A stretch of 64,000 nucleotides of DNA from NCBI GenBank assembly GCA_002389045.1, contig DGNS01000013.1, forward strand, positions 155,523 to 219,522, in the 5' to 3' direction. Shown here one piece after another: positions 18,440-48,016 of the stretch (position 1 is its first letter; every line of letters begins with the position of its first letter). Made by a program: the position numbers and the translations under genes. The notes under the pieces were generated by a model that was not told the DNA's origin, did not search any database, and saw only the letters and a list, made by a program, of their open reading frames with translations. The stretch comes from Thiotrichaceae bacterium UBA4486. GTDB taxonomy: Bacteria > Pseudomonadota > Gammaproteobacteria > Eutrophobiales > Eutrophobiaceae.

Positions 18440-18496
18440 GACAGGGGATCTCCCGGTTAATCTAAAATTCCGTGTTAATACATGGGGTTTGCGGGG

Positions 18497-18991: not shown

Positions 18992-19427
18992 GAAATTTCA
19001 GGCCCACAAAATATTCCTTCAGCTTCGGCATATTGTACACTTGCAAGCCGGTGTGATTTTCGATTTCATCGATGACGCGTTGCAGTTCCCCGGTATTGTC
19101 GGCGGCGATGACAAACCACATATTGAATTCATGTTCGCGTTCATAATTATGCGCGACCTCAGGAAAAGCGTTGACACGGGCGGCGGTTTCGTCAAAGACA
19201 TCATCGGGAACCTTCATGGCCGCCAGACTGTAGATGCCACCCAGTCTTTCCATGTTATACATTGGTCCAAAGCGTGACAGTATCCCGTTTTTCAGCAATG
19301 TTTCAATGCACTTGATCAGGGCGTTCTCGTCCAGGTTGAGTTCACCGCCGATTTCGGCGAAAGGCTGTTTGCAGACAGGAAAGCCATCCTGCAATCTGTT
19401 GATAATATGTCTGTCAAGATCGTCCAT
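18984..19427 (-). CDS. nirG: Siroheme decarboxylase subunit NirG
   Basis: Paralogue of the nirD/L/H products. I chose the ATG at 19427 (MDDLDRHIINRLQDGFPVC...), which has AAGGAG 10 nt upstream and gives a NirG-like 147 aa. The 19556 ORF start would overlap nirL extensively. Confidence 0.8.
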   Translation of the reverse strand: MDDLDRHIINRLQDGFPVCKQPFAEIGGELNLDENALIKCIETLLKNGILSRFGPMYNMERLGGIYSLAAMKVPDDVFDETAARVNAFPEVAHNYEREHEFNMWFVIAADNTGELQRVIDEIENHTGLQVYNMPKLKEYFVGLKFHV

Positions 19428-19443
19428 TGGCGTATGTCTCCTT

Positions 19444-19980
19444 TCAGGAATCATCATCTCCTGTCTTCCTGCAGGGATGATAATGCATACCCCGCTGCTT
19501 GAAACGACGCTTGCTGAACAGGATATCGTACCTGGCGTTGCCATGTGTATAGTCATTAGCGAGCCTGTGCACCTGATCGATTACCGTTTGCCGATCCTTG
19601 CCGTGTATCATACAGAACAGGTTATACGGCCAATGTGGCAGTATCCGGGGACGGCGATAACACAGATTCACTGTTTCTGATGCAGCAAGCTGCTGTGCGA
19701 ATTCGCGTACGTGTTCGTCAGGTATATTCCATACCACCATTGCGTTGGCGGTGTAGCCGAGTTCCCGGTGATTGACCACGACTCCGAAGCGCTTGATCAG
19801 TCCGCAAATACGCATGATACGGATCCGATCAAGGACTTCCTTTTCAGTGATTCCCAGTTTCTCCGCAATGTCCAGATAAGGTCGTTTTACAAAGGCGATG
19901 CCGCCGGCAATGATATCGATCAGTTGCCAGTCCACGGCATCCGGTCTGTACTCCGGCATTTTCGGGTTGTTCATCACCAT
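19444..19980 (-). CDS. nirL: Siroheme decarboxylase subunit NirL
   Basis: 178-aa AsnC-like paralogue (…VVNHRELGYTANAMVVWNIP…). Overlaps the nirD stop by 7 nt. Confidence 0.8.
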   Translation of the reverse strand: MVMNNPKMPEYRPDAVDWQLIDIIAGGIAFVKRPYLDIAEKLGITEKEVLDRIRIMRICGLIKRFGVVVNHRELGYTANAMVVWNIPDEHVREFAQQLAASETVNLCYRRPRILPHWPYNLFCMIHGKDRQTVIDQVHRLANDYTHGNARYDILFSKRRFKQRGMHYHPCRKTGDDDS

Positions 19981-20450
19981 TGCAGTTCGAAACCCAGATC
20001 AATATGAAAATTTTCAAGCATGGGCAGTTTCAGACAGCGATAGCCGGTGGCCTCTTCTATACTGTCGAGGAGATTGTCAAGTTCATCATCCGTCGACGCG
20101 GCAATGACAAACCAGAGGTTATATTCATGCTGCCGTTCGTAATTATGGTTTACACCATCATACGAATTGATTATGGCAGCGATTTTCTCCAGTTCCGCTT
20201 CCGGGATCGACATGGCGACCAGCGTGCTGACCCCCAGCGAGTTGCATTTGAACACGGGCCCGATACGGCTGATGTAGCCGCGTTCCTGCAGCGATTGCAA
20301 TCGCTGTATAACCGCGTCCTCGTCAATACCGGTTTTGTCGGCCAGGTCCTGCCAGGGCCGTACGCTGAGTGGAAACTCGTGCTGGAAGTTGTTCAACAGC
20401 TCGCGATCAATATCGGCAAGCTCTTCAGGACTGGACAGGCGCTCACTCAT
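19974..20450 (-). CDS. nirD: Siroheme decarboxylase subunit NirD
   Basis: 158-aa AsnC-like paralogue. First of the D-L-G-H series, directly after nirF. Confidence 0.8.
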   Translation of the reverse strand: MSERLSSPEELADIDRELLNNFQHEFPLSVRPWQDLADKTGIDEDAVIQRLQSLQERGYISRIGPVFKCNSLGVSTLVAMSIPEAELEKIAAIINSYDGVNHNYERQHEYNLWFVIAASTDDELDNLLDSIEEATGYRCLKLPMLENFHIDLGFELQW

Positions 20451-20452
20451 TA

Positions 20453-21628
20453 TTACAATCCCGTCATGTGCGCACGTGCGGTAAAAAATATACCGCTGGG
20501 TTTTTCAACGTCAATTGCGGTGATTTGGCGAAAGCTTCCGGTATCGTAAACATTGACACGGTCGGTATCACGTACCGAGACCCATACCGCTTCACCCCGC
20601 GGAGTGAATTCCATATGCAGCACACCCTTGCCGGGTTTGAGTTCATGGACAACAGCCATGGTGCTGGCATCGATAACCTGGACCGTATCATTATCGGGTA
20701 GTGCAAAGTTGACCCAGAGATGTCGGCCATCCGGCCTGGCCATGACAAAGACCGGTTGTCCATGCACGGGAATCCGCTGCGCTTCACTCCAGTCATGGCG
20801 GTTGATGGCGATGACCTCGTGTCTGCCGACAGCGGGTACGAACAGATGGTCACCGGCTGCAGCCCAGCCTTCCAGGTGCGGCATTTTGTAGACCGGCAGT
20901 TTTTCCTCGCCGCGGCCATAATCCGGCAGTATTCTGCGAATACCCTGTTGCGGTTGCCACAAATCCACCAGGGCGAGGCCGTCCTCGCCAAAGAGGCCGG
21001 CAATGTAATAACGACCATCCGGGGTAATCAGCGCGTCATAAGGCTGATTACCTGCGCCGGTCAGTTTCAGGATTTCCGGGTTATCCCGATCCGAGAAATC
21101 GGCAATCCATATCTCTCCGGCATCAAACAGGCTGAAAACAAAGCGGTTCCCGGGAGCGTCGACCAGGCCCACCACCCTGGATACAGCATCTCCCGCACCG
21201 TGTATTGCCGGGATGTCGGCCACCGGTTGCAGGGTTTCCGAGTCGAATACCCTGACGCCACCGGGTTCGTAATTGGAAACAGCAATCAGGCGGCCGTCCT
21301 GGGAAATAGCACCCCCGATACTGTTACCGGCCTGGATTACGCGATGGCTGATTTTTTGTTCCAGCAGATCAATCTTCGTCAGGCCGCCATCACGGCCAAA
21401 AACATAGGCATAGCGGGTATCACGGGAGAACACGGCCGAAGCATGCGACAGGTCACCCAGCCCCGGTATTCTGCCCAGTACGGTATGTTGTGTGGTTTCA
21501 ACGACTGTTATGCTGCCGCTGGTCCGCTCTATGATAATACCGAGATCGCCGGTCCCGCGTACGGCTGCCCAGGCCACGAGCGTCGTTGACGCGGCAATGA
21601 ACAGTCCGGCCAACGCCCGGTATTTCAT
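20453..21628 (-). CDS. nirF: NirF, d1-type beta-propeller protein required for heme d1 maturation
   Basis: Signal/anchor followed by a NirS-like propeller with no heme c site. I chose the ATG at 21628 (MKYRALAGLF...), 2 nt after the nirC stop. Confidence 0.85.
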   Translation of the reverse strand: MKYRALAGLFIAASTTLVAWAAVRGTGDLGIIIERTSGSITVVETTQHTVLGRIPGLGDLSHASAVFSRDTRYAYVFGRDGGLTKIDLLEQKISHRVIQAGNSIGGAISQDGRLIAVSNYEPGGVRVFDSETLQPVADIPAIHGAGDAVSRVVGLVDAPGNRFVFSLFDAGEIWIADFSDRDNPEILKLTGAGNQPYDALITPDGRYYIAGLFGEDGLALVDLWQPQQGIRRILPDYGRGEEKLPVYKMPHLEGWAAAGDHLFVPAVGRHEVIAINRHDWSEAQRIPVHGQPVFVMARPDGRHLWVNFALPDNDTVQVIDASTMAVVHELKPGKGVLHMEFTPRGEAVWVSVRDTDRVNVYDTGSFRQITAIDVEKPSGIFFTARAHMTGL

Positions 21629-21630
21629 GG

Positions 21631-23731
<2,101 letters not shown>

Positions 23732-23773: not shown

Positions 23774-23787
23774 TTGACATAAATCAA
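23774..23787. promoter_or_regulatory. FNR/Dnr-type box upstream of nirS
   Basis: TTGACATAAATCAA matches TTGAT-N4-ATCAA at 9 of 10 half-site positions. Its centre is about 85 nt upstream of the nirS ATG. TAGCAT on the minus strand (23751..23746) sits about 32 nt from the centre, where a -10 element would be expected. Confidence 0.7.
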
Positions 23788-23895: not shown

Positions 23896-24642
23896 TTATT
23901 CATTCAGTAATTTCCGCAGTGCATCAGTATCAAGCAAAACGATTTCATGCCCTTTGACGTCAATTATATTGTCTTTTCTCAGCCGCGCCAGTATCCGTGA
24001 CAATGTTTCCGGTTTAATCGCAAGTCGTGATGCCAGAACGCTTTTCGGATAATCCAGGGCGATATGGGTAGCAACGGGTGAATGTTCAGGAATGGAGTTC
24101 AACAGGTGCCAGGCCAGGCGGTAGGTGGCGTTATGCAGGGTCAGGTTATCGATTTCCATGAGTTGTATATGCAGCCTTTTGCACATGGTGGCGAGCAGGG
24201 AGAAGCAGGTATCCACCGATTCCCTTAGGATATCCCTGAACCCGGCCATGTTGATCGCCAGTAACCGGGAATCCTGAATGGCGATGGCATTAACGGGATA
24301 GGTCTGGCCCTCGAAAAACGTCACTGCTTCGGCGAAAATCTGCCCTGGATCAATGATATCAATCACTTTTTCCTGACCGTTTTCAGACACCAGGTACAAC
24401 TGGATCTGACCCTTTCTTAACATATAAAAGTACTCGGCGTGGTCGCCACGATGGAACAGGTGGCGACCCGAAGCCAGGGATATGCTGTGAACCCGGGTGA
24501 GTACTTTCAACAACTGTTCATCATCCAGGGCCTTGAATAAAGGGATTGATTTGAACTCGCTGAGTAGCTCAAGGCGATTAACGGATTGATTATTATTGAT
24601 GTTTTCCACTTGACTTCGGTCAATGCTATATAATTCCGGCAA
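23896..24642 (-). CDS. Crp/Fnr-family transcriptional regulator, Dnr/NnrR type (no FNR Cys cluster)
   Basis: cNMP-binding-like domain plus a C-terminal HTH carrying the FNR-type E--SR recognition motif (PETLSRILARL). The only Cys residues are in DTCFSLLATMCK, so an N-terminal [4Fe-4S] ligand set is absent. The start is non-ATG, either TTG at 24642 or GTG at 24609. Confidence 0.85.
   Translation of the reverse strand: MPELYSIDRSQVENINNNQSVNRLELLSEFKSIPLFKALDDEQLLKVLTRVHSISLASGRHLFHRGDHAEYFYMLRKGQIQLYLVSENGQEKVIDIIDPGQIFAEAVTFFEGQTYPVNAIAIQDSRLLAINMAGFRDILRESVDTCFSLLATMCKRLHIQLMEIDNLTLHNATYRLAWHLLNSIPEHSPVATHIALDYPKSVLASRLAIKPETLSRILARLRKDNIIDVKGHEIVLLDTDALRKLLNE
24610..24623. promoter_or_regulatory. 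Perfect FNR/Dnr-type palindrome overlapping the 5' end of the regulator gene
   Basis: TTGACTTCGGTCAA is a perfect 5-4-5 inverted repeat. On the plus strand, TAGTAT at 24645..24650 lies about 31 nt from the box centre. Confidence 0.6.
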
Positions 24643-26342: not shown

Positions 26343-27308
26343 TCAACCGGAATGGTTGCGGACCTGCATGGTCAGGTTGATTACCGAAAACAGCAGCAGC
26401 ACGGCCATCAGGTTGTGCAGGGTATTGGTCCATAACGGCATATCGGCCAGGACGTTGAAGATACCCAGTGCGAATTCGGCCACGAAGACCATCACAACCG
26501 CTCTGATGGCGCCGCGCAAATGTGGATAATGTCTGCTCGCCAGCCGCCAGGATATCAACACTACTATTGCCATGACGATGGCTATGAGCCGATGAGTGTA
26601 TTGAATGATGCTGGATGAAGTATCAATCACCATACGGTCATTTTCATCCAGCGTAAGCCTGCGCAACGGATTCAGGCTGTCGGTGATGTGAGCCTTTATA
26701 TTTTCAGTATGGGAACAGGTTAACAATTCCGGGCAGGCGGAGCCGGTGTAATTGGCGCTGGCCCAGGCACCGCTGATTAACTGCAATGTCAGGGTTGCAG
26801 AGAGCAGGTAAAGTACGAAATGGCCCTCGATGATCCGGCGGGACCTCATGCGCAGGAGTTGCCGCCAGATCAGACCCGACAACACGATACCACCGAGGAT
26901 ATTGCCGAACGTGACAACGGGTAAACTGCGTGTCGGTGTCGTCATGCCGATAACGGAGAGAAAAATGACGACGAGAAACATCAGCGCCGGCAATCCGGGT
27001 GCAATAACCCTGCGATAGCGCAAGGCCAGCAACAGGATGACGAGAATATTCACGCCGAGCAGGGATGCTACGTAACGGTGCATGGCCCTGAACGTCCTGA
27101 ATTCCGAATCCGGTATTTGCAAACCCTTGATGCCATCGGCGAACGACAGCTGAGCGTAGCATTGCGGCCACGGGGAGCATCCCAGGCCGGCTTCACCCAG
27201 ACGGATATGGGTACTGAGCATGAGGATAGTCAAGGATAGTATCAGTGCAGACCCGGTCAGGCAGATGAAAATCCGTATCGGTAACCGGTATGGATTCGGA
27301 GTATTCAT
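26343..27308 (-). CDS. ctaA: Heme A synthase (COX15/CtaA family)
   Basis: 321 aa with 8 TM helices. N-terminal Cys pair (GLGCSPWPQC) and conserved His in TM helices (AMHRYVASLLG, THRLIAIVMA, LHNLMAVLL). Confidence 0.8.
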   Translation of the reverse strand: MNTPNPYRLPIRIFICLTGSALILSLTILMLSTHIRLGEAGLGCSPWPQCYAQLSFADGIKGLQIPDSEFRTFRAMHRYVASLLGVNILVILLLALRYRRVIAPGLPALMFLVVIFLSVIGMTTPTRSLPVVTFGNILGGIVLSGLIWRQLLRMRSRRIIEGHFVLYLLSATLTLQLISGAWASANYTGSACPELLTCSHTENIKAHITDSLNPLRRLTLDENDRMVIDTSSSIIQYTHRLIAIVMAIVVLISWRLASRHYPHLRGAIRAVVMVFVAEFALGIFNVLADMPLWTNTLHNLMAVLLLFSVINLTMQVRNHSG

Positions 27309-27920: not shown

Positions 27921-28088
27921 ATGTCGGAATCAGAAAAGGATACCAATGAAAACGAGGAAAAGATTCCCGTAATGCAACAACTGCTGGATAATCCGTTTTT
28001 ACTGCTTTTCCTGGGCGTGACCATACCCACTGTCTTCTATCTAATCTGGGGAATCATGGAGATCGTAACGATTCCGATTGCCAAATAA
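27921..28088 (+). CDS. Small single-TM protein, candidate HCO accessory subunit (ba3 subunit-IIa-like position)
   Basis: This 55-aa ORF is below the ORF-track cutoff: MSESEKDTNENEEKIPVMQQLLDNPFLLLFLGVTIPTVFYLIWGIMEIVTIPIAK. GGGGAGG lies 5 nt upstream of the ATG. It has one hydrophobic helix and lies 27 nt upstream of subunit II. Confidence 0.55.
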   Translation: MSESEKDTNENEEKIPVMQQLLDNPFLLLFLGVTIPTVFYLIWGIMEIVTIPIAK

Positions 28089-28115: not shown

Positions 28116-28664
28116 ATGTCGGTTACCCCTCCACAACAAAAAGTCTGGTGGAATGAACCTGTTCCCAAATCAGAACTGATCTGGGTCATCGTCGCATTTA
28201 TCTGGGGCCTGATCATGTTTTTCATGATGGTGTACTGGCATGCTTACGGGGAGCAGAACCTGTCCAACGAATCCTATCGCATTACGGCGGAAGACTACTC
28301 CGCGAAAACGGAAGCGATGGTGGAAAAATACACGGTACGTGAAGAGTCCGGTTACCCGGTCGTGCATCCACCTCCCGGCAGCGACGTCTACCTGATTGCG
28401 CGATTATGGCAATGGTGGCCTATTCTGGAACTGGAAAAAGGGCAGACATACAGGCTGCATCTTTCATCCCTGGACTGGTTGCACGGCTTTTCCCTGCAGC
28501 CGGTCAATATCAATGTTCAGGTACACCCCGACTATGAAATGGTGATTACGACCACACCGGATGTCGCCGGAGAATACGGCATTGTTTGCAACGAATATTG
28601 TGGCATCGGACATCACCAGATGCTGGGTAGATTGTACGTCGTCGATAATGGGGAGAGTAAATAA
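28116..28664 (+). CDS. Heme-copper oxidase subunit II, single-TM, CuA-containing (B-family-like)
   Basis: 182 aa with one N-terminal TM helix and a cupredoxin domain carrying a complete CuA motif (H...CNEYCGIGHHQM). Confidence 0.9.
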   Translation: MSVTPPQQKVWWNEPVPKSELIWVIVAFIWGLIMFFMMVYWHAYGEQNLSNESYRITAEDYSAKTEAMVEKYTVREESGYPVVHPPPGSDVYLIARLWQWWPILELEKGQTYRLHLSSLDWLHGFSLQPVNINVQVHPDYEMVITTTPDVAGEYGIVCNEYCGIGHHQMLGRLYVVDNGESK

Positions 28665-30352
28665 TGGCAACCAATGAACAATACAGAATATGCCAGTCGA
28701 CCGGACTCCGGGTCTATAAATCCGCCGAGAATCTGATCAAGGCCAATGCTGTAGTGGCCGTTGTATTTCTCGCCATTGGGGGATTGTTTGGTTTGATGGT
28801 CGCATTGACACGCTGGAAAGCGGTCCACCTGCTGCCCGCTGACTGGTTCTACCTGGTGCTGACCGCACATGGCATTAATGTGCTGATTGTATGGATTATT
28901 TTCTTCGAAATGGCCGTACTGTATTTTGCTTCGGCAGTATTGCTTGGCTGCCGCCTGGCGACGCCTCGCTGGGCATGGGCCGGATTCGTGCTGATGTTGA
29001 TCGGGGCCATCATGACCAATGTCGCGGTGCTGCAGGGTGATTCCAGTGTCATGTTCACCTCCTATGTGCCATTGAAGGCGGCGCCTTCCTTCTACCTCGG
29101 TATCATCCTGTTTGCGGTAGGTGCACTGGTCGGCTGTTTCGTGTTTTTCGGCACCCTGGTTCTGGCCAAGCAGGAGCGTACCTATGAAGGTTCGGTGCCA
29201 CTGGTGACGTTTGGCGCGACCGTGGCGGCCATTATTGCCGTTTTCACCATTGCCTCCGGCGCCATTATTCTGATTCCCACATTTCTCTGGTCGTTTGGAT
29301 ATATCAGTCATATCGACACACTGATGTACAGAACCATCTGGTGGGGGCTGGGGCACTCATCACAGCAAATCAACGTTGCGGCACATATCTCCATCTGGTA
29401 CCTGATATCCGCGGTGGTGCTTGGCGCCAAGCCGTTATCGGAAAAAGTCAGCCGCGGCGCGTTCCTGCTGTATATTCTGTTCCTGCAACTGGCCAGCGCC
29501 CATCATCTGTTGGTTGACCCGGGCATCAGTTCCGAGTGGAAGGTGTTCAATACCAGTTATGCAATCTATCTCGCTGTTCTCGGCAGCATGATTCATGGTC
29601 TCACCGTGCCAGGTCAGATCGAGGCGGCGCAACGAAAGAAGGGCTTCAACAATGGTCTTTTTGAATGGTTGAGAAAAGCACCGTGGGGTAATCCCGCCTT
29701 TTCGGGAATGTTCATTTCACTGATCCTGTTCGGGTTCCTCGGTGGCATCTCCGGCGTGGTCATGGGTGTTGAACAGATTAACCTCATAATCCACAACACC
29801 ATTTATGTTCCCGGTCACTTCCATGCCACCGTGGTGGCCGGTACCACCCTGGCTTTCATGGCTGTCACTTACCTGCTGGTCCCGCTGATCTTTCAGCGGG
29901 AACTGGTTTTGCCCGGCTGGGCCAAGGTGCAACCGTACGTATTCGGTATCGGTGTTGCCGGTATATCGCTGTTCATGATGGGCGCCGGCACGCTGGGTGT
30001 GCCACGACGGCACTGGGATATATCCCAGGCGGATGCGATACTGCCCTATGACTTCCCCGGCGCGGCAAACCTGATGATGGGGTTGAATGGCCTGAGCGCG
30101 CTTCTGGCCGGTGTTGGCGGTATCATGTTCGTCGTCGTCGTCGTGGGTTCGATTCTGTTCGGCAAGAAAATCGAATCCAGTTCTGAGGTGGCGAAAACCG
30201 ATCCGGCAGCGGAGGTTGCTACCAAATACGGCAGTGAGGAACATCCATCGGTGCCCGGTACGCTGGTGCTGGTTGCGGTATTCTTCATAAGTTTCGTACT
30301 TTACTATTACGTGAACTGGAAATACCTGGCGGAAATCTGGCCGTTACGCTAA
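28664..30352 (+). CDS. Heme-copper oxidase subunit I, ba3/B-family-like, with Gln in place of the cross-linked Tyr (candidate NO-reductase-type HCO)
   Basis: 562 aa. By eye it is collinear with Thermus ba3 subunit I as I recall that sequence (VPLVTF.., APWGNPAF, HNTIYVPGHFH, GVPRRHW). All six His ligands are present (TAHGINV; WWGLGH; SAHH; PGHFH). Helix VI reads HSSQQ where ba3 reads HPIVY. The ATG overlaps the subunit II stop by 1 nt. Confidence 0.9.
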   Translation: MATNEQYRICQSTGLRVYKSAENLIKANAVVAVVFLAIGGLFGLMVALTRWKAVHLLPADWFYLVLTAHGINVLIVWIIFFEMAVLYFASAVLLGCRLATPRWAWAGFVLMLIGAIMTNVAVLQGDSSVMFTSYVPLKAAPSFYLGIILFAVGALVGCFVFFGTLVLAKQERTYEGSVPLVTFGATVAAIIAVFTIASGAIILIPTFLWSFGYISHIDTLMYRTIWWGLGHSSQQINVAAHISIWYLISAVVLGAKPLSEKVSRGAFLLYILFLQLASAHHLLVDPGISSEWKVFNTSYAIYLAVLGSMIHGLTVPGQIEAAQRKKGFNNGLFEWLRKAPWGNPAFSGMFISLILFGFLGGISGVVMGVEQINLIIHNTIYVPGHFHATVVAGTTLAFMAVTYLLVPLIFQRELVLPGWAKVQPYVFGIGVAGISLFMMGAGTLGVPRRHWDISQADAILPYDFPGAANLMMGLNGLSALLAGVGGIMFVVVVVGSILFGKKIESSSEVAKTDPAAEVATKYGSEEHPSVPGTLVLVAVFFISFVLYYYVNWKYLAEIWPLR

Positions 30353-30364
30353 CGCGGGCTGTCG

Positions 30365-31231
30365 ATGATGTATAACGCGATCAAACTGGCAGCATCGGTA
30401 TTCAAGCTCAGGATTGGTTTTGCAATCATGCTGACCGGTCTTGCCGGTCTTGCAATAACCCCCGGCATGGCGCCGTCAGTTGCAGAGACCGTTCTCTTCG
30501 CTGTTGCCATATTGTTATCTTCAGCAAGCGCCGGCGCTTTTAATCAGTATGTTGAGCGCGATCTCGACGCGAGGATGAAGCGTACAAGAAACCGGCCTTT
30601 CGTGACGGGCCGGTTTCGTGCCGACAAATACTGGCTGACCCTGATATATCTGATGTTGCTGGTTTCGGTACTGGCCACCTCGATTGTTATCAATGCAATG
30701 GCCGCGCTCTATGTATTCCTGGGAGCATTCACCTACGGGGTCGTCTATACAGTCTGGTTGAAAAGGCGCACCTGGCTGAATATCGTCATCGGTGGTTTGT
30801 CAGGCAGTTTTGCAGTTCTTGCGGGTGCCGCGGTTGTTGATCCCGGCCTGTCCGCGGCGCCGGTTCTTCTGGCTGTCGCCCTTTTTCTCTGGACTCCGCC
30901 ACATTTCTGGAGTCTCGCTTTCGTTTGTGCCGATGATTACAGGTCCGCAGGTGTACCCATGCTGCCGGCGGTATTTGCAAAACCGGTGGCTGCAAGGATT
31001 ATATTTCTACACACTGTTGCTTTGGTACTGGTATCAGTATTACCGTTTTTTTATGGTCTCGGCTGGATCTACCTTGTCGGAGCACTGGCAGGCGGATTGT
31101 ATTTCCTGAAGAAAAGTTATGATCTCGTCCGCCGGCCATCTGTAGCGACAGCACGCGCCAACTTCAAGGCATCCCTTGTTCAATTGACACTGTTACTGTG
31201 TGCATGTGTTCTGGATGTAGTATTTGTCTGA
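30365..31231 (+). CDS. ctaB: Protoheme IX farnesyltransferase (heme O synthase)
   Basis: 288-aa UbiA-family membrane protein with the NQYVERDLDARMKRTRNRP motif. Confidence 0.9.
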   Translation: MMYNAIKLAASVFKLRIGFAIMLTGLAGLAITPGMAPSVAETVLFAVAILLSSASAGAFNQYVERDLDARMKRTRNRPFVTGRFRADKYWLTLIYLMLLVSVLATSIVINAMAALYVFLGAFTYGVVYTVWLKRRTWLNIVIGGLSGSFAVLAGAAVVDPGLSAAPVLLAVALFLWTPPHFWSLAFVCADDYRSAGVPMLPAVFAKPVAARIIFLHTVALVLVSVLPFFYGLGWIYLVGALAGGLYFLKKSYDLVRRPSVATARANFKASLVQLTLLLCACVLDVVFV

Positions 31232-32099
31232 TTCATCCGGTAACCATGTGCTGTTCCCTATCAAAAAATCACTGATAAATTCATTACCGGTCCTGTGTGC
31301 CGTAATTGCCCTCTGGGCAACCGGTCTGCGACCTGTTGTTGCCATGGATGAGCATACGCACACGGCAGACAGGTATGATAAGGACCAGGCACTGGAGTTC
31401 AGCCAGTCAGCGTTGAACCGGACTATAGGTGACTATGCGTTCGTCAATCAGGACGGGAAACCTGTAAGCCTGTTACAATACAGGGGGAAACCATTGATTG
31501 TCAGCCTTGTCTATACCAGTTGTCATCATGTCTGTCCGATGCTGACCAGCCATCTGGATGAGGTGGTGGATATCGCCAGGGAGGCACTGGGGCATGACAG
31601 TTTCTCGGTTGTAACCATCGGCTTTGATACGGCGGTTGACAGCCCTGAACGCATGCGGCTTTTTGCCAGGGAGCGGAATATCGATTTCAGGGGCTGGGAT
31701 TTCCTCAGTGCGGATGCGGAAACGATAGAAGCATTCAGTAATGATATCGGCTTTATTTTTTTTGAATCGGCGAAGGGTTTTGATCACCTGTCCCAGACAA
31801 CGCTGCTTGATGCGCAAGGTCGCGTTTACCGGCAGATATACGGCGTGCAGTACGAAGCTCCCGTCCTGGTTGAGCCGCTCAAGGAACTGGTGTTCGGCAA
31901 GTACAGCGAGGCAACTCTTGTAGAAGGCTGGATCAACAACATCCGCCTTTTCTGCACGCTGTATGATGCCCGTTCAGGACGTTATTACTTCGATTATTCG
32001 ATATTTATAGGACTTATTATTGGTATTGTTATCCTCGTTTCCATTGCGGTATTTATCATACGCTCATGGCGACAACACACACCCGACAGTAACAGGTAA
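31224..32099 (+). CDS. senC: SCO1/SenC copper chaperone with an extra C-terminal TM helix
   Basis: 291 aa with an N-terminal anchor and a thioredoxin fold carrying the CxxxC motif (YTSCHHVCP) and a downstream His. Overlaps ctaB by 8 nt. Confidence 0.88.
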   Translation: MSDSSGNHVLFPIKKSLINSLPVLCAVIALWATGLRPVVAMDEHTHTADRYDKDQALEFSQSALNRTIGDYAFVNQDGKPVSLLQYRGKPLIVSLVYTSCHHVCPMLTSHLDEVVDIAREALGHDSFSVVTIGFDTAVDSPERMRLFARERNIDFRGWDFLSADAETIEAFSNDIGFIFFESAKGFDHLSQTTLLDAQGRVYRQIYGVQYEAPVLVEPLKELVFGKYSEATLVEGWINNIRLFCTLYDARSGRYYFDYSIFIGLIIGIVILVSIAVFIIRSWRQHTPDSNR

Positions 32100-32102
32100 C
32101 TG

Positions 32103-33677
32103 ATGTCTGCTATCAAAGCCGTGCTCAGGAAAGGGTTCGAAACCATTGAGGACCTGTTCGACAGGATTTTTGGCGCAAAAAACAATCCTTTCTATCAGCT
32201 TGGGGCCCTGGGATGGTTTTATTTCTGGATTGTCGTGGTCAGTGGGATCTATGTGTATATCTTCTTCGATACCGGCGTTACCCAGGCTTATAAGTCACTT
32301 GAATACCTGACGCATGAACAATGGTATGCAGGCGGGGTCATGCGCAGTCTGCATCGTTATGCCTCGGATGCACTGGTTGTGATGATGATGGTGCATATGT
32401 TAAGAGAGTTTGCCATGGACAGGTTCCGGAGTTCACGCTGGTTTGCCTGGTTTACAGGCGTACCCATGTTATGGCTGGTGTTTGCCGCGGGTATTTCCGG
32501 ATACTGGATGATCTGGGACCAGCTTGCCCAGTATATTGCTATCACAACCGCGGAATTCCTGGATGCCCTGCCAGTGTTTGGCGAATCCATTGCCAGGAAC
32601 TTTGTCACCGATGCAAAACTGAGCGGACGGTTTTTTACGCTGATGGTTTTTGTTCACATTGCCTTGCCACTGATCCTGCTCTTTATCATGTGGATACACA
32701 TTCAGAGGCACGCATCACCAAAGGTCAATCCACCAAGGACGCTGGCTCTTGGCACATTCGCAATGTTGCTCGTTGTTTCCTTTGTCAAACCGGCGCTAAG
32801 CCAGCCCCCCGCGGATTTGAACTATGTGCCTGCGACGGTAAATCTGGACTGGTTCTACATGCCGATATACCCGGTTCTGAACAATGTCTCGGGTGTTACG
32901 GTCTGGATCGCCCTGGTGGCGGCCACCGTTTTTTTGATGATGATGCCATGGTTGCCACCGGGCAAACGTCATCCGGTTGCGGTTGTCAATCTGGATAATT
33001 GTAACGGCTGTGGCCGTTGCGCGGCTGATTGCCCGTTCAGTGCCATTACCATGGAACCCCGTTCCGATGGCAGTGCCTACCAGCTGGAAGCTGTTGTGCA
33101 TGCGGATCACTGTACCAGTTGCGGGATATGCGTGGGTTCCTGTCCCACGGCGACACCGTTCAGGACAAAATCCGATTTGTCTCCCGGGATTGAATTGCCC
33201 GAGCATCAAATCAGTGAGCTCAGGGATAAAACCATTGCGGCTTCCGGCAAAATGACCGGCAATGACAGGATTATTATATACGGTTGTGATAACAGTCTTG
33301 ATGCAACCGACGTTATTGATGATAAAACGCAGGTGCTGACCATGCCATGTGTCGGCATGCTGCCGCCATCATTTATTGATTATGTTTTATCCAGAAATCT
33401 TTTCGATGGTGTATTCCTGACCGGTTGCCGGCAAGGCGATTGCAATTACCGCCTTGGCCTTAAATGGACCGATGCCCGCCTGGCGGGTGAACGCGACCCG
33501 CGTCTGCGAAAACGGGTCAACGCGGATCGGGTCAGTAAATACTGGGCAGGATTGACACGGCATAAGGAATTTTTCAGAAAGTTGACGGCTTTTCGTAAAC
33601 GGCTGGCTGCTATGGGGCCAGAACAGGACAGCGGCCAGCAGGGTAAAAAAACCGGGGTTGCGGATATCAATGCTTGA
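32103..33677 (+). CDS. Fusion protein: dihaem cytochrome b (bc-type N-terminal domain) + 2x[4Fe-4S] ferredoxin + MvhD/FlpD-like domain
   Basis: 524 aa. It has two H-x13-H pairs in TM helices (HRYASDALVVMMMVH and HIALPLILLFIMWIH). Two CxxCxxCxxxCP motifs follow (CNGCGRCAADCP, CTSCGICVGSCP). The C-terminal segment is IIIYGC...LTMPCVGMLPPSFIDYVL...GVFLTGCRQGDCNY, as in the methyl-viologen-reducing hydrogenase delta subunit. Confidence 0.8.
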   Translation: MSAIKAVLRKGFETIEDLFDRIFGAKNNPFYQLGALGWFYFWIVVVSGIYVYIFFDTGVTQAYKSLEYLTHEQWYAGGVMRSLHRYASDALVVMMMVHMLREFAMDRFRSSRWFAWFTGVPMLWLVFAAGISGYWMIWDQLAQYIAITTAEFLDALPVFGESIARNFVTDAKLSGRFFTLMVFVHIALPLILLFIMWIHIQRHASPKVNPPRTLALGTFAMLLVVSFVKPALSQPPADLNYVPATVNLDWFYMPIYPVLNNVSGVTVWIALVAATVFLMMMPWLPPGKRHPVAVVNLDNCNGCGRCAADCPFSAITMEPRSDGSAYQLEAVVHADHCTSCGICVGSCPTATPFRTKSDLSPGIELPEHQISELRDKTIAASGKMTGNDRIIIYGCDNSLDATDVIDDKTQVLTMPCVGMLPPSFIDYVLSRNLFDGVFLTGCRQGDCNYRLGLKWTDARLAGERDPRLRKRVNADRVSKYWAGLTRHKEFFRKLTAFRKRLAAMGPEQDSGQQGKKTGVADINA

Positions 33678-34173
33678 ACCACGTCTCATTTTCGGCCAGA
33701 TAATAGCTTATGGCATATTTGCAATCGTGCTCGGCTATTTCTCCAACTCACCGGCTTATACCTATCACGACCCGGAAAAGGCGCTGTTAATGGTGAGTTT
33801 CAGTCATGCCAGCCAGACAAAAGAAGAGTGTCGGCGTTTTACCCAGGAAGAACTGGCGGAACTGGCGCCCAATATGCGCCGCCCGATGGATTGTCCAAGG
33901 GAGCGAGTTCCTGTATACCTGGAAATAACCATGGATGATGAAGTTGTCGTGAGTAATTCCTATTCACCAACGGGTCTGGCAAAAGACGGTTCAACATCGA
34001 TTTATGAAAGTATTCCTGTGAAACCGGGGAAACACGAGCTGGTTTCCAGGATGCGAGACAGCCGGCGTAAGGAAGGTTTCGATTACACGAGTAAAATTAC
34101 AGTCGACCTGGAACCCAGAGAGCTTTTCGTAATTGATTTCAGAAAAGAGCTGGGTGGTTTTTATTATAAATGA
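33670..34173 (+). CDS. Hypothetical N-terminally membrane-anchored protein
   Basis: 167 aa from the ATG at 33670, which forms an ATGCTTGA overlap with the upstream stop. One TM helix is followed by a soluble domain containing two Cys. I did not recognise a family. Confidence 0.6.
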   Translation: MLEPRLIFGQIIAYGIFAIVLGYFSNSPAYTYHDPEKALLMVSFSHASQTKEECRRFTQEELAELAPNMRRPMDCPRERVPVYLEITMDDEVVVSNSYSPTGLAKDGSTSIYESIPVKPGKHELVSRMRDSRRKEGFDYTSKITVDLEPRELFVIDFRKELGGFYYK

Positions 34174-34182
34174 GGTTGTCCC

Positions 34183-34569
34183 ATGAGTTTGGTTGAGTGG
34201 CGCGAGGAATTCAGAACGGGGATTGATGAAGTAGATTTCGAACATAAGGAGTTGATCGAGTTAATCAATAATACTTATAAAGAAGCCTCTGAAAAAGGCA
34301 CCTCAGACGCTCTGGATGAGGGCCTGGGTGAAATATTTTCAAAAATTTCGGCGCATTTCGCTCTTGAGGAAAAGATAATGCGTGAGCTTGAATATGACCA
34401 GTATCAGGATCACAAGGAAGATCACGAACGGTTGCTGGATAGCATCAGGGATATCATGGATGATGTTTCAAGGCTGGATGAAGAGAAGTTCGGACAGAGC
34501 CTGAAGGACTGGTTTGTTATTCACTTCAGTACCAGGGATGCGAGAATGCATAAACAACTGCAGAGGTAA
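34183..34569 (+). CDS. Bacteriohemerythrin-like protein
   Basis: 128 aa. The N-terminus W.EEF.TGIDEVDFEHKELIELIN is typical of hemerythrin-like metal-binding domains. Further H/E/D ligand positions are present (HFALEE, HKEDHERL, HFSTRD). Confidence 0.85.
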   Translation: MSLVEWREEFRTGIDEVDFEHKELIELINNTYKEASEKGTSDALDEGLGEIFSKISAHFALEEKIMRELEYDQYQDHKEDHERLLDSIRDIMDDVSRLDEEKFGQSLKDWFVIHFSTRDARMHKQLQR

Positions 34570-34688
34570 CCTGTGCCGATTGATGCATGGTTTTACCGCT
34601 GCTGTCCGGTCGCACGATATTCGCTGCGGCCTGAATGATTCCCGGTGCGAGAGTACAGGGTGATTCAATAACCACAGGAGAAACCGCA

Positions 34689-34991
34689 ATGATAAAAACA
34701 CGCAGTATTTTGTTGTACTCACTTATGGCCTGCATGCCGGCTGTCTCATCGGCTGGTGATGCCGAAGCCGGCAAGGCCAAATCATCCACCTGTGCTGCCT
34801 GTCATGGTGCCGAGGGTATCAGCCCGAATGACATGTGGCCCAATCTTGCGGGCCAGAAAGAAGGTTACCTGGTCAAGCAGTTAAAGGACTTCAGGGACGG
34901 TAATCGTAAGGATCCCATGATGGCGCCTATGGCTTCGCCGCTCAGTGATGATGACATTGCAAATCTTGCCGCCTACTTCAGCAGCTTGTAA
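34689..34991 (+). CDS. Periplasmic monoheme class I cytochrome c
   Basis: I chose the ATG at 34689, which has AGGAG upstream. It has a signal peptide, a CAACHG heme site and a distal Met region (PMMAPMA). Confidence 0.85.
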
Positions 34992-35033: not shown

Positions 35034-35627
35034 TTATCTCTCGCCCACGGCAGCACTCGGATCAACAGATCGCATGTCAGGAAGGGAGTGCGCCACTCCT
35101 TTGTGACAGTCAATACAGGTTTGTCCTTCCTCAAATGCCACGATATGTCTGTCGCGCGCACGGCGGCCCTGGGCCATGTAATCCATGGATTTGAAATCAT
35201 GACAGTTCCGGCATTCCCGTGAATCTGTTTTTTTCATGGCGTCCCAGACATGCGTGGCCAGTTCCAGGCGTTTGGCTTCGAATTTTTCCGGAGTATCTAT
35301 ACTCCCCAGCGCCTTGTGCAACAGTTCATTGCTTGCCCGGATCTTGCGTACTATCTTGTGATGCCATTCTTTAGGGACATGGCAATCGGGGCAGGTGGCA
35401 CGTACACCGGTACGGTTGGAATAGTGAATGGTATTCTTGTACTCGCGATAAACATTTTCTTCCATCTCATGACAGGATATGCAAAAGGTTTCGGTATTGG
35501 TTGCTTCCATTGCCCAGTTGAATCCACCCCAGAACATGATGCCGAAGATGAATGCTCCTATAGCAATGGTAATTACCGAAAACCTGCCAAGAAAAGACCT
35601 GAACCACAGATACGATGATTTAAACAT
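35034..35627 (-). CDS. napC: Tetraheme quinol dehydrogenase NapC (NapC/NirT family)
   Basis: 197 aa with an N-terminal TM anchor and four CxxCH sites (CISCH, CPDCH, CRNCH, CIDCH). Confidence 0.9.
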   Translation of the reverse strand: MFKSSYLWFRSFLGRFSVITIAIGAFIFGIMFWGGFNWAMEATNTETFCISCHEMEENVYREYKNTIHYSNRTGVRATCPDCHVPKEWHHKIVRKIRASNELLHKALGSIDTPEKFEAKRLELATHVWDAMKKTDSRECRNCHDFKSMDYMAQGRRARDRHIVAFEEGQTCIDCHKGVAHSLPDMRSVDPSAAVGER

Positions 35628-35731
35628 TGTTCATTTCCCTGCTTTCATTTTATTGAAGAGTCCCCGGCCACTGCGCCGCTCCGGTTGCATTGGTTTCAAT
35701 TCAGGACTGTGTGCCGGTTATGAATGGTCAT

Positions 35732-36199
35732 TCAGTGCTGCTGTATCGCCCTTACCGGTTCAAATTCGTTATCCACGAGGGGTTTTGCATTGACCTGCGG
35801 GACATGACACTGATTGCAGAAATAGCGCCTGGCGGCGACGTTGGCCTGTACATTTCTGTCGCGGTCCTCAAAATGGGTCTGGCTGATCTTGGTGGCGCCG
35901 GATTCCTTGTAATTGGCCCAGCTGTGGCAGGTCAGACACTTGTTGAATTTGACATTGATCACATAACCCTCGATGGAATGCGGGACCAGTGGCGGTTGTT
36001 GCACATAATCACGCGGAATGGGATCACGATCCGGCTGCCACTGTTTCAGTTCCGGTGCGGTGTCCGGTTCATCTATCATGGTTTCACCGCGCAGGGATTT
36101 GACTTCGGTTGTATCAGCAGCCGCAGCGAACTTCACTGCACTAGCGGTGATTGTGAACTGCAGTAAAATGATCAGCAGATAGATACGCTTCTTTTTCAT
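35732..36199 (-). CDS. napB: Diheme cytochrome c NapB
   Basis: 155 aa with a signal peptide and two CxxCH sites (CLTCH, CNQCH). Overlaps the napH stop. Confidence 0.9.
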   Translation of the reverse strand: MKKKRIYLLIILLQFTITASAVKFAAAADTTEVKSLRGETMIDEPDTAPELKQWQPDRDPIPRDYVQQPPLVPHSIEGYVINVKFNKCLTCHSWANYKESGATKISQTHFEDRDRNVQANVAARRYFCNQCHVPQVNAKPLVDNEFEPVRAIQQH

Positions 36200-37092
36200 G
36201 TCATTGCCTCACCCTGGTTTGTAGTTACTGGGGTTGTCCGGTGGTCGAATCGCTGTGTCAGACTGAATACATCACGGTTACAGACATCGAGACAGCGAAA
36301 GCAGTTGGTACAGTTTCCGGAAAGGATCAGCGGTGTGCTGCCGGCAGTATCTGGTTTCAATGCCGGTTTGATCACCTGTGGTTCGGGACAGACGCGAAAG
36401 CAGTCCATGCAGTCGTTACATTGATCCCGGCGGATGGCGGATACCCGCAGCAGGCTGATTTGTCCGGGGATACTGTAAAAAGCGCCTACCGGACACAGAT
36501 GCCCGCACCAGCCATGCCTGCTGACGAACACATCGAACAGAAATATGCCGATGATGAATATCCAGGCCATGCCGAAGCCGAACAGCACGCCTCGATACAC
36601 CATGGACACCGGGTTCAGCAGTTCCCAGGCGATAGTGCCGGTAACGGCGGCAACCGCCAGCGACACGCCCAGTATCCAGTAACGAGTGGATTTGCCGAGG
36701 CGCCAGCCGTTACCGGTAATGCCGAGTGTTCTCCGGCACCATGCAGCCACGTCGGTGACGATATTGATCGGGCAAACCCAGGAGCAGTACACACGTCCGC
36801 CGAGGATTATGTACGCGCCGAGTACGATAAGGGTGCCGGTGATCGCCGTGATACCGGGGACATGCCCGGCAAACAATGACTGCAACACTACGTATGGGTC
36901 GGTCAACGGTAGTACATCCAGTGTCCGGCTCGAAGCCAGGCTGCCCTTGACGATCCAGATCCCGGCCAGCGGTCCGAGCAGGAAGATTCCCAGGATACCC
37001 AGCTGTGTCAGGCGCCTGAAGACCAGCCAGCGGTGCAGCGCCCAGCCATTTTTTTCGCGGTGTTGCCCTGGGCCTGTATCGAGTACTCTCAC
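36196..37092 (-). CDS. napH: Membrane-bound ferredoxin-type quinol dehydrogenase component NapH
   Basis: 298 aa with 4 TM helices, CxxxCP motifs (CSWVCP, CGHLCP) and C-terminal 4Fe-4S motifs ([23 protein letters not shown]). Confidence 0.9.
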
Positions 37093-37946
37093 TGAACTTC
37101 CCCGGAGTGCCGGTTCAGGGTTTTCAGTGGATCACCGGCAAATGGTGTTTCGCCCGTGTCCTGTTTCAGACCCGCTCCTCCGTGTTCGTACTGTATTCCC
37201 TGTGGCAGGTTGTACTGATGTTCCGTGTCCGGGGTGACCAGGCTCCTGCCGGCTTTGCGTTTTTCCTCCCAGCCCATGCGGTAGTGTCCTGCGGCTTCGC
37301 CCTTCGCCAGTTTGCGGGGAAAGACCTTGACCGCGGCTTCCGGCAACACACAGGCGTATTCGCATTTACCGCAGCCGGTGCAGGCATCCGAATGTACAGT
37401 GGGCAGGAACAATGCGTGCTTGCCGCTGCGCGGGTTATGCAGCATTTCCAGAGTGATGGCCTCGTCTATGAGCGGGCACACCCGGTAGCAGACATCGCAG
37501 CGCAGACCCTGGAAATTCAGGCAGGTCTCCTGATCAATCAGTGCAGCGAGCCCCATGCGGGCGTCATCGATATCCTGCAGATCCGGATCCAGCGCGCCGG
37601 TGGGACAGGCCTTGACACAGGGAATGTCCTCACACATCTCGCAGGGCACGTCACGCGCGATGAAATACGGCGTGCCGGTGGTGACGTCTTCAAGAAAGCC
37701 GGCCAGACGCAGGGTATCGTAGGGGCAATCGCGCACGCACAGTCCGCAACGGATGCAGGCACCACCGAACTCATGCTCATCGATGGCACCGGGCGGACGT
37801 ATGGCGCCGGCCGGCAGGGAACTGGCCTTGCCGGAGTAAATACCCAGGCCCGTGGCCAGCAGTCCGAAACCGCAGACGGCCCCGGCGCTGTCGAGCAGAA
37901 ATTTTCTGCGTCCGGGAATGGTGCTATGCCCGTTTGATGTCATCAT
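37089..37946 (-). CDS. napG: Periplasmic ferredoxin-type protein NapG
   Basis: 285 aa with a twin-arginine signal (GRRKFLL) and four 4Fe-4S Cys motifs. Confidence 0.9.
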
Positions 37947-37958
37947 CCAGTGTCACTC

Positions 37959-40517
37959 TCAGGCTTCGCGAACGACCTTACAGGCGCATTTCTTGAAATC
38001 TGTTTCCTTGGAGATCGGACAGGTGGCATCCAGCGTCAGTTTGTTTACCAGGCGGCTGGCGTCAAACCAGGGAATGAAGACCAGGCCTTCCGGGGTGCGG
38101 TTCCTGCCGCGGGTTTCAACACGCAAACTGATCTCGCCCCGGCGTGTCTGTACCCTGGCGACCATGCCCCGGCGCAGGTTGCGTTTTCTGGCGTCGTTCG
38201 GATGCATGAACACTACGGCATCGGGAAAGGCGCGATAAAGTTCCGGCACACGCCGGGTCATGGACCCGGAATGCCAGTGCTCCAGCACCCGCCCGGTACA
38301 GAGCCACAGGTCATAGTCGTTATCCGGTTCCTCCGCGGCGGGTTCATAGGGCAGGGCGAAGATCCAGGCCTTGCCGTCGTCCTTGCCATAAAATTCGATC
38401 CCGGCGCCCTTTTTCACGAACGGATCGTAGCCTTCACGATAGCGCCACAGGGTTTCCTTGCCGTTCACTACCGGCCAGCGCAAGCCCCGGGTTTCATGGT
38501 AGTGATCGAATTCGCCCAGATCGTGGCCCTTCTTGGGGCCCTCCAGACCGAAGCGGCGGTATTCCTCGAACAGGCCTTTTTGTACATAAAAGCCGAAATG
38601 CTGCATTTCATCGTTGTCGTAGTGATGACCGCGGCTGTCAGTAACCATGGCTTGCGGGTATTGATCAACCTGGCCGTTTTTATACAGCACTTCGTAGAGC
38701 GTTTTCCCTCGATACTCCGGTTTTTTGTCCAGCAGTGCCTGTGGCCAGATTTCTTCCATTGTGAAGCGTTTGGAAAATTCCATTATCTGCCAGAGATCGG
38801 ATCTGGCTTCACCGGGCGCTTTGACCTGCTGGCGCCAGAACTGGGTGCGACGCTCGGCATTGCCATAGGCGCCTTCCTTCTCGGTCCACATGGCGGTCGG
38901 CAGGATCAAATCGGCGGCCATGGCGGTGACGGTGGGGTAGGGATCGGAGACGACGATGAAGTTGTCCGGATTGCGGTAACCGGGAAACGTCTCATTGTTC
39001 ATGTTCGGGGCGGCCTGCATGTTGTTGTTGCACATGACCCAGTACGCATTCAGCTTGCCGTCCTTTAACATGCGGTTTTGCAATACAGCGTGGTAGCCCA
39101 CCTTGCCGTTCAGCGTCCCCTGCGGCAGTTTCCAGACCTGCTCGGTGAATGCACGGTGTTTTTCGTTATTGACCACCAGATCGGCGGGCAGCCGATGGGC
39201 GAAGGTGCCGACCTCGCGTGCCGTACCGCAGGCCGACGGCTGACCAGTCAACGAGAAGGGACTGTTACCGGGCTCGGAGATCTTGCCGGTGAGCAAGTGC
39301 ACGTTGTAGACCATGTTATTGACCCAACTACCCCGGGTATGCTGATTGAAACCCATGGTCCAGTAGGAAGTGACTTTTCTGTCCGGGTCAGCGTAGAGTT
39401 CGGCCAGTTCCTGCAAATCCCTGGCCGGGACCCCGGAGAGTCTGGATACGTTTTCCAGGTCATAGTCAGCAACAAATTCTGCAAACTCTTCAAACGAGAT
39501 GGCTTGTGATCCTATGGTGTCGGCACGGCTCTTGTTGTTTTTCGCGCTGACCTCAAGCGGATGATCCGGGCGCAGCCCGTAGCCGATGTCCGCATTGCCG
39601 AGCCGGAAATTGACATGGTTCTTGATGAACTCCTCGTTGACGTTGCCGGACTGGATGATGTGGTTACAGATGTAGTTGAGGATGGCGAGATCCGTCTGTG
39701 GCCGGAAAACAATGCCGAGATCGGCCAGTTCGAAATTACGGTTTTCAAATACCGAGAGCACGGCGACCTTGACATCATGCCCGGTCAGTCGGCGATCAGT
39801 GAGGCGTGACCAGAGTATGGGATGCATCTCAGCCATGTTTGCGCCCCAGAGTACGAATGCATCGGCATGTTCCAGGTCGTCGTAACAGCCCATGGGTTCA
39901 TCGCTGCCGAAAGTGCGTATGAATCCGGCCACGGCCGAGGCCATGCAGTGGCGCGCGTTGGGATCGATATGATTGCTTCTGAAGCCGGCTTTCATCAGTT
40001 TTGAAGCCGCGTAGCCTTCCCACACGGTCCACTGCCCGGAACCGAACATGCCTACCGATGAGGTCAGTTCTTCCGGCGCCTTGCCCTGGTTGGCGGCCAG
40101 ATCCTTTTTTATGGCGGCTTTGAACTTTTCCGCCATCACATCAAAGGCTTCATCCCAGCTTACCGGGGTAAATTCACCGTTCTTGTCGTAGTTACCGTTT
40201 TTCTTGCGCAGCAACGGTTGTGTCAGGCGATCCTCACCGTACATGATCTTGGACAGGAAATAGCCCTTGATACAGTTCAGACCACGGTTCACCGGCGCAT
40301 CCGGATCGCCCTGGGTGGCAACAATGCGGCCGCCTTTTGTACCGACGAGTACGCTGCAGCCGGTACCGCAAAAACGGCAGGGCGCCTTGTCCCAGCGGAT
40401 TTTTTCATCCTCGTGTGCGGCCATGACCCGGCTGATGCCGGGTAGATTGATACCTGCCGCCGCCGCGGTGGCAAGAATGGCATTACTCTTGACAAAGTCT
40501 CGTCGGGTCAGCTTCAT
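37959..40517 (-). CDS. napA: Periplasmic nitrate reductase catalytic subunit NapA
   Basis: 852 aa with a Tat signal ([11 protein letters not shown]), an N-terminal 4Fe-4S motif (CRFCGTGC...C) and a molybdopterin oxidoreductase body. Confidence 0.97.
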
Positions 40518-40780
40518 GATGACATCTCCTCGTTCGCGTCATCCTCTTCATAATGCTGGTAAACAACCGCAGCGGAGAGAATGTGTTCGTGTGTCTGTAA
40601 CTCGTTTAACAGGTAACCGGTTTCTTCACGGGTTTGTTTTTCGACCGTGATCACCATGCGCCCGTCCGGCATAACCTTATGGACTTCAACACCGTCTTCA
40701 TTGTTGAGGTAATCGAGAACTGCCGCGCGATGTGCAGGCAGGCTGTGGATCAGCAGGCCACTGATATTGATGACGGACAT
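40514..40780 (-). CDS. napD: NapA chaperone NapD
   Basis: I chose the ATG at 40780 ([15 protein letters not shown]...), giving 88 aa, which is NapD-like in length and has an acidic C-terminus. An ATGA overlap joins it to napA. Confidence 0.85.
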
Positions 40781-47799: not shown

Positions 47800-48016
47800 A
47801 GACGCCAGGCATGCCAGGAAAAAATACTAACGGAAACAGAATTTGGAATAGTACGGAATGGTGCTATCCCGAATTCTATATACCCTGGTCCTGCTCCTTG
47901 TCCATCTCACTGGATCCGGCTTCATGAATAGTGTGATTGACTTACCTGGCGTGAGAAAAATCCTTTGTCCCTGACCACGAATCCTGCTGACAGTCCTTTT
48001 ATTTAACTGGTATGGA

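Follow-up and report, generated by a model that had tools for sequence, protein, structure and literature searches.

The stretch analysed here, 64,000 nucleotides of Thiotrichaceae bacterium UBA4486 (contig DGNS01000013.1 of assembly GCA_002389045.1, positions 155,523 to 219,522; hereafter the window), carries an operon for a heme-copper oxidoreductase (HCO) between a nir and a nap gene cluster. The subunit I gene of this operon, an open reading frame (ORF) at 28664..30352, very probably codes for the catalytic subunit of a nitric oxide (NO) reductase of the eNOR type, a reading based on the residue diagnostic of that family, on clustering with a haloarchaeal protein that has the same motif, and on the gene context.

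A heme-copper subunit I with glutamine at the position of the cross-linked tyrosine

The product of ORF 28664..30352 matches the Pfam family PF00115 (COX1) with an E value of 3e-65, and the solved structures closest to it are Thermus thermophilus ba3 subunit I (E about 1e-46) and the Aquifex oxidase 7deg. The HMMER alignment to ba3 was ungapped over the whole segment between the start of helix VI and the end of helix VII, and paired H69 with ba3 H72, H231 with H233, Q235 with Y237, H280-H281 with H282-H283, and H385 and H387 with H384 and H386. The heme ligands of subunit I are accordingly H69, H385 and H387, and the non-heme metal ligands H231, H280 and H281. The translation of 29339..29377 is WWGLGHSSQQINV, which places H231 at 29354..29356 and Q235 at 29366..29368. 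An earlier note on this DNA had recognised by eye the motifs VPLVTF, WSFG, APWGNPAF, HNTIYVPGHFH, GVPRRHW, LTAHGINV, WWGLGH, SAHHLLVDPG and LLYILFLQLASAHH, had counted all six histidine ligands as retained, and had read glutamine in place of the cross-linked tyrosine; every one of these motifs occurs in the translation, and the alignment bears out both the ligands and the substitution. Where ba3 reads HPIVY the window protein reads HSSQQ, and the tyrosine that B-family oxidases carry four residues after the helix VI histidine is absent. The cross-linked tyrosine of the C-family cbb3 oxidases lies on helix VII, about 6 residues before the histidine pair, and their partner subunits are cytochromes c. 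The sole helix VII tyrosine of the window protein, Y270, precedes H280 by 10 residues, and its partner subunit is of the CuA type, so that the note was also right to see no cbb3-style replacement. From these residues a His-Tyr cross-link at H231 would not be expected.

The residue at this position distinguishes the classes of HCO: it is Y in the O2 reductases, E in cNOR and qNOR, N in sNOR and CuANOR, D in gNOR and Q in eNOR (PMC8756737, Table A4, adapted from Hemp & Gennis 2008), and the glutamine, as the diagnostic of eNOR, has served to select eNOR sequences (PMC8756737, section 2.7.1). The eNOR family, a branch of the HCO superfamily descended from B-type oxygen reductases, was predicted in 2008 and biochemically characterised in 2024, and Gammaproteobacteria were already known to carry its genes (PMC8756737). 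The purified enzyme of Rhodothermus marinus reduces NO and, with several donors tried, does not reduce O2 (Murali et al., PMC11214002). The inference from tyrosine loss to an NO-reducing relative of the oxidases, drawn in the earlier note, thus agrees with published work; that the family had been named and characterised was not recognised there, and genome annotation still calls such proteins ‘cytochrome c oxidase subunit I’. As the substitution defines a described family, the finding is correct but ordinary, and the field learns nothing new from the enzyme as such.

Other classes of NO reductase fit less well. Gln235 differs from the Asn that sNOR and bNOR have at the tyrosine position, and from the Glu that serves cNOR, qNOR and nNOR as a fourth FeB ligand; a relation to the C family, as for cNOR and qNOR, was likewise not seen, the nearest solved structures being B-family proteins and not NorB. 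The gNOR pattern, in which Asp replaces one active-site His and subunit II is devoid of CuA ligands, is not that of the window, where the three histidines are present and the CuA site is complete. An sNOR had first been considered from the similar order of the subunit genes and senC, and was ruled out by its Asn.

Conservation of the glutamine and phylogeny of subunit I

Subunit I has thousands of homologues. Across the 205 that were compared, down to 43% identity, Gln235 is invariant (205/205), as are H69, H231, H280, H281, H385 and H387; this set includes members of a metagenomic clade at 56% identity (P0121) and the protein of the haloarchaeon Natrarchaeobius at 43% (P0127). Being conserved in all 205 homologues, Gln235 is not a chance or sequencing feature. 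We surveyed the motif in representatives of 50%-identity clusters that cover the helix VI site. All intact representatives that are at least 45% identical read GHxxQQ(I/V/M)N, save that one reads GHQSHQ, which keeps the Gln at +4, and one differs in the last residue; a fragment runs out of frame right after QQ. Four archaeal proteins at 36-43% identity have GHxxQY(I/V)N instead; in B-family oxidases, at about 30%, the motif is GHPxVYFW, and a distant match (P0260) reads GHTLVN, with Asn at the tyrosine position. In a neighbour-joining tree, the window protein, P0121 and the haloarchaeal P0127 formed one clade, sister to the tyrosine-bearing GHxxQY archaeal proteins and apart from the GHPxVYFW oxidases, in agreement with the reported clustering of eNOR with the K family of O2 reductases (10.1101/592808).

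A separate group of subunit I relatives (P0180, P0196, P0212, P0253 and P0256, one of them from a Dehalococcoidia metagenome-assembled genome) reads FHxxHY, LYH and GYFH at three ligand motifs, lacks one helix VII histidine and the proximal heme histidine of helix X, and falls in the tree with a paralogue type devoid of CuB ligands (P0264).

Tyrosines, K-channel positions and structural model

Positions of the ba3 K channel are largely retained, Y246, S259, S308 and T314 corresponding to ba3 Y248, S261, S309 and T315; these residues are conserved across homologues and resemble those of the B family, with H311 replacing T312. Six further conserved positions, Y63, Y134, Y144, Y246, Y270 and Y403, are tyrosine also in most or all of the four tyrosine-bearing QY-type relatives and, being present in proteins that keep the canonical tyrosine, are not replacements for it. 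Two tyrosines at the start of helix VIII, Y299 (29558..29560) and Y302 (29567..29569), are invariant only in the glutamine-bearing lineage. On helix II, E82 (28907..28909) is common to the tyrosine-bearing archaeal relatives and absent from ba3.

An AlphaFold2 model of subunit I, built from 36 close homologues, had a predicted local distance difference test score (pLDDT) of 63 and a predicted template modelling score (pTM) of 0.70, with low confidence around the ligands. Its best Foldseek matches were B-family structures, with a template modelling (TM) score of about 0.71. Such a model, which the earlier note had proposed as a check, hence upheld the B-family fold and did not yield the distances of tyrosines to H231.

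The operon and its conserved companions

The features of the window are collected in Table 1. Gene co-occurrence was counted in the 80 closest related loci, all of them in metagenome-assembled genomes, mostly gammaproteobacterial and many from Woeseiaceae.

Table 1. Features of the window; positions are counted from its first letter, and fractions give the loci in which a gene was found.
Feature	Position	Strand	Evidence or remark
Nir cluster: nirN, nirJ, four NirD/L/G/H-type genes, nirF, nirC, nirS	15709..23695	-	
nirS, cytochrome cd1 nitrite reductase	21986..23695	-	FNR/Dnr-type box at 23774..23787
Crp/Fnr-family regulator	23896..24642	-	between nirS and eNOR region
Subunit I paralogue, 454 residues	24959..26323	+	26% identity to subunit I, E 3e-25
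ctaA, heme A synthase	26343..27308	-	PF02628, E 8e-30
62-residue ORF, two predicted transmembrane helices	27420..27608	+	64/80; no family match; between ctaA and eNOR operon
FNR/Dnr-type palindrome TTGACCTATGTCAA	27825..27838		83 bp upstream of 55-residue ORF
55-residue ORF, one transmembrane helix, candidate third small subunit	27921..28088	+	conservation in 81/84 loci
Subunit II, 182 residues, one transmembrane helix, cupredoxin domain	28116..28664	+	alignment to Thermus CuA domain; 79/80
Subunit I, 562 residues, very probably eNOR-type	28664..30352	+	PF00115 COX1 match, ba3 alignment, conservation
ctaB, heme O synthase	30365..31231	+	TIGR01473, 255 bits, cut-off 210; 49/80
SCO1/SenC copper chaperone	31224..32099	+	74/80
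Fusion of cytochrome b6-like domain, two [4Fe-4S] clusters and MvhD/FlpD-like domain	32103..33677	+	71/80
171-residue protein, one transmembrane helix, invariant Cys58/Cys79 pair	33658..34173	+	no known family
Bacteriohemerythrin	34183..34569	+	68/80; last conserved gene of cluster
Small monoheme cytochrome c	34635..34991	+	13/80
napC, B, H, G, A, D, F	35034..41286		3' of eNOR region
NnrS, two U32 peptidase-family genes, NrdD anaerobic ribonucleotide reductase	46549..53066		downstream of nap
Exact TTGAY-N4-RTCAA sites	15661, 23774, 24610, 27825, 41358, 41448, 50929		seven sites

The CuA site of subunit II is complete (H...C-x3-C-x3-H-x2-M), every ligand aligning with the Thermus CuA domain, and the stop codon of its gene overlaps the start of subunit I. 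The 55-residue ORF, which is too short for the default ORF list and has a good ribosome-binding site, stands directly 5' of subunit II in nearly all loci that were compared for it, those of the 56%-identity clade included; in the haloarchaeal locus it was found weakly. Its position is that of the ba3 subunit IIa gene (cbaD), and its product, a candidate for a third subunit, is probably the counterpart of ba3 subunit IIa.

Genes for heme and copper assembly adjoin the subunit genes. The SCO1/SenC protein is likely to be a CuA assembly factor, and the adjoining ctaA and ctaB suggest an A-type heme in the window enzyme, much as the earlier note, which allowed for an A- or O-type heme, had argued from the same two genes. 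Precedents are at hand: R. marinus eNOR has heme As in both heme sites, ctaA occurs in many eNOR operons (PMC11214002), and the neighbourhood of the Magnetospirillum magneticum AMB-1 eNOR holds both ctaA and ctaB (10.1101/2021.10.15.464467, the preprint version of PMC11214002). The small monoheme cytochrome c is a candidate for the periplasmic electron donor to CuA.

The eNOR operon is larger than its two subunits and is strongly conserved. In about 70 of the 80 loci the cytochrome b6-like/Fe-S/MvhD fusion and the 171-residue Cys-pair protein are kept with eNOR. The former appears in databases under no other name than ‘hydrogenase iron-sulfur subunit’ or ‘cytochrome b N-terminal domain protein’; the latter had no Pfam or NCBIfam match, and a profile search of the PDB gave nothing below an E value of 0.19. 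In some genomes (L081-L083 and several other loci) the two form a single gene, in which the Cys-pair domain makes up the C-terminal end, behind a further transmembrane helix; a fused gene of this kind encodes 715 residues.

The subunit I paralogue keeps the helix II histidine, one helix VI histidine (GGGH211), the helix X HxH and the Arg/Lys pair; as it lacks the helix VII histidine pair, the three-histidine metal site cannot form. It too has thousands of homologues, is present in 9 of the 80 related loci, and in several lineages either adjoins the eNOR operon or forms part of it; in both Pseudomonadales-type loci examined it stands inside the operon, at the place of the hemerythrin. Other HCO-like matches in the related loci, at a low identity of 24-27%, had been candidates for further paralogues and were ruled out as cross-hits to subunit I.

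No description of these accessory partners of eNOR was found in the literature searched. We tentatively propose, as one possibility only, that the conserved co-operonic set forms an undescribed partner module, that the proteobacterial eNOR core does not work alone, and that Tyr299 and Tyr302 perhaps have a catalytic or protective part as well. The module may comprise the 55-residue peptide, the cytochrome b6-like/2x[4Fe-4S]/MvhD fusion, to which the Cys-pair domain is joined in some genomes, and the hemerythrin or, in its place, the subunit I paralogue, and may serve electron input, cofactor maturation, or the handling of NO or O2. What novelty is left lies in these accessory genes, the only part of the locus that might repay further work.

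Denitrification genes and FNR/Dnr-type sites

NirS, the product of nirS, would be the source of the NO substrate for eNOR, and nirS or heme d1 genes lie within 10 kb in 29 of the 80 related loci. Among the window ORFs scanned there was no cNOR, qNOR or nosZ. With eNOR recognised, what appeared to be a region with nirS and without nor becomes a pathway of nap, nirS and eNOR that ends at N2O. Of the genes farther downstream, the two of the U32 peptidase family are possibly UbiU/UbiV-like and involved in O2-independent ubiquinone synthesis; together with those for NnrS and NrdD, they sit oddly with an O2-requiring heme A synthase adjoining eNOR.

The palindrome upstream of the 55-residue ORF is likely to be an anaerobic or NO-responsive promoter element of the eNOR operon. 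Exact TTGAY-N4-RTCAA sites are found seven times in the window against 0.27 expected: upstream of nirS (23774), inside the annotated 5' end of the Crp/Fnr regulator ORF, where the site faces the divergently transcribed paralogue gene (24610), upstream of the eNOR operon (27825), twice upstream of napF (41358 and 41448), upstream of nrdD (50929), and at the annotated start of ORF 14253..15674 (15661). Of 79 related loci, 48 also have an exact site in the 300 bp preceding the operon, compared to 0.027 expected per 300 bp. The distribution of the seven sites in the window suggests one low-oxygen/NO regulon. A scan of the operon for sigma-70 promoters and terminators did no better than on shuffled sequences.

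The ORF 14253..15674 (minus strand, 473 residues), at the end of the nir cluster, had no Pfam match, and its annotated start is overlapped by the exact FNR-type box mentioned above.

Proposed mechanism and alternative activities

From the sequence features, their conservation, the gene context and the regulatory sites, we infer what the enzyme does, which metal and heme it uses and how it takes up protons, as follows. A periplasmic cytochrome c would deliver electrons to CuA of subunit II, from where they would pass to the low-spin heme (H69/H387) and on to a binuclear site, which would pair the high-spin heme (H385) with a non-heme metal bound by H231, H280 and H281 and have Gln235 as its neighbour. 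At this site two NO, made by the neighbouring NirS, would be reduced to N2O; because there would be no redox-active His-Tyr cofactor, the fourth electron for O2 reduction would be lacking. The K-channel-like residues Y246, S259, S308, H311 and T314 could carry protons from the cytoplasm, in which case the reaction would be electrogenic. CtaB and CtaA would supply the A-type heme and SCO1 would load CuA, and the FNR/Dnr-type site would let the operon respond to low oxygen or NO together with nirS, nap and nrdD.

Several points weigh against this reading of the locus. The synthesis of heme A by CtaA requires O2, whereas the flanking genes and the FNR-type boxes point to anoxia. Given this requirement, microoxic conditions may be where eNOR is used, a suggestion already made for R. 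marinus (PMC11214002). Within the family, the R. marinus enzyme alone has been demonstrated to reduce NO and not O2, and for the window protein and its gammaproteobacterial clade NO reduction is a prediction. The eNOR-specific Y299 and Y302 are placed by sequence and not in three dimensions and, as the AlphaFold2 model was modest (pLDDT 63), the absence of a tyrosine near H231 is likewise read from the sequence.

The best-surviving alternative, itself unlikely, is that the enzyme acts on another small molecule, by scavenging and detoxifying NO or O2 in place of respiring, by a peroxidase-type reaction or by reducing N2O, perhaps with the cytochrome b/Fe-S protein, the hemerythrin and the subunit I paralogue as accessory proteins. 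These accessory genes are conserved and unexplained, and the absence of nosZ among the scanned ORFs speaks for it as well. Hemerythrins bind O2 or NO, which can be counted in the same direction. The turnover of R. marinus eNOR is moreover low, at 0.68 NO per second, yet the sole biochemistry available for the family is the conversion of NO to N2O (PMC11214002). That nirS is adjacent, and that the scanned ORFs include no further NOR, would be expected of an NO reductase serving respiration as much as of one serving detoxification.

That the protein is still an O2 reductase, either with another redox-active residue (Y299 or Y302 of helix VIII, for instance) or with no need of one, we regard as very improbable. 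All traits of a B-type oxidase are there, namely the fold, the six histidines, CuA, the K-channel-like residues and the biosynthesis of A-type heme, which itself requires O2, and Y299 and Y302 arise exactly in the lineage without the tyrosine at H+4. However, the other conserved tyrosines, Y270 among them, occur in relatives that have the canonical one, and the helical register would place Y299 and Y302 off the face of helix VIII that bears the channel residue Ser308. A hidden cofactor is also argued against by the R. marinus enzyme, which did not reduce O2, and by published modelling of the family, in which no migrated tyrosine was found (PMC11214002). The gene context, finally, is one of denitrification under FNR-type control. 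An inactive relic of a ba3-type oxidase, which the loss of a residue essential to the ancestral activity might suggest, is scarcely credible, being already contradicted by the conservation seen in thousands of homologues with invariant ligands and GHxxQQ, in the operon and in its regulatory site.

An eNOR-type NO reductase thus remains the preferred reading, and it has some ecological weight. Apparently among the commonest N2O-forming enzymes in nature, eNOR is reported to lead the nor types of coastal sediments in both abundance and transcription (PMC11214002, PMC13592168). The same is reported of estuarine sediments, where Woeseiales dominate the net N2O producers (PMC13592168); the many Woeseiaceae among the loci related to the window fit these reports.

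Comparison with known systems

The nearest counterpart by description, rather than by sequence comparison, is the eNOR of R. marinus DSM 4252 (Rmar_0161; PMC11214002). Like the window enzyme as proposed here, it has two subunits, a CuA site and a B-family-derived HCO with Gln in place of the cross-linked Tyr, together with K-channel-like residues, A-type heme and a role in denitrification next to a nitrite reductase. Possible extras of the window operon are its further conserved genes: the cytochrome b/Fe-S/MvhD fusion, the Cys-pair protein, the hemerythrin and the subunit I paralogue. The ‘Cytochrome a1-like hemoprotein’ of Magnetospirillum magnetotacticum, an eNOR according to PMC11214002, is a heme-A HCO without cytochrome c oxidase activity. 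It is alphaproteobacterial, unlike the window, and was again likened by description and not by sequence. Its gene order, presumably subunit II, subunit I and heme O synthase, would be that of the window.

Thermus ba3 (PDB 1EHK, 1XME), the best solved relative with a TM score of 0.71, shares with the window enzyme the same six histidines, a CuA subunit II with one transmembrane helix and the overall fold seen in the structural matches, and differs from it in reading HPIVY, with the cross-linked Tyr237, in having T312 where the window protein has H311, and in reducing O2. In Thermus, too, a gene for a small one-helix subunit lies upstream. The bNOR (qCuANOR) of Bacillus azotoformans and sNOR resemble the window enzyme as B-family-derived NO reductases with a cupredoxin subunit and no cross-linked Tyr, and bNOR is electrogenic, as the window enzyme may be; unlike it, they fall into other clades and have Asn at the tyrosine position (PMC8756737, Table A4). 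The nearest relatives outside eNOR are the archaeal GHxxQY oxidases of Hodarchaeales and Thermoproteota, at the 36-43% identity given above, which are probably the ‘K family’ of 10.1101/592808. These share Q234, N237, E82, H311 and Y270 with the window protein but have Tyr at H+4 and are without Y299 and Y302; they are presumed O2 reductases.

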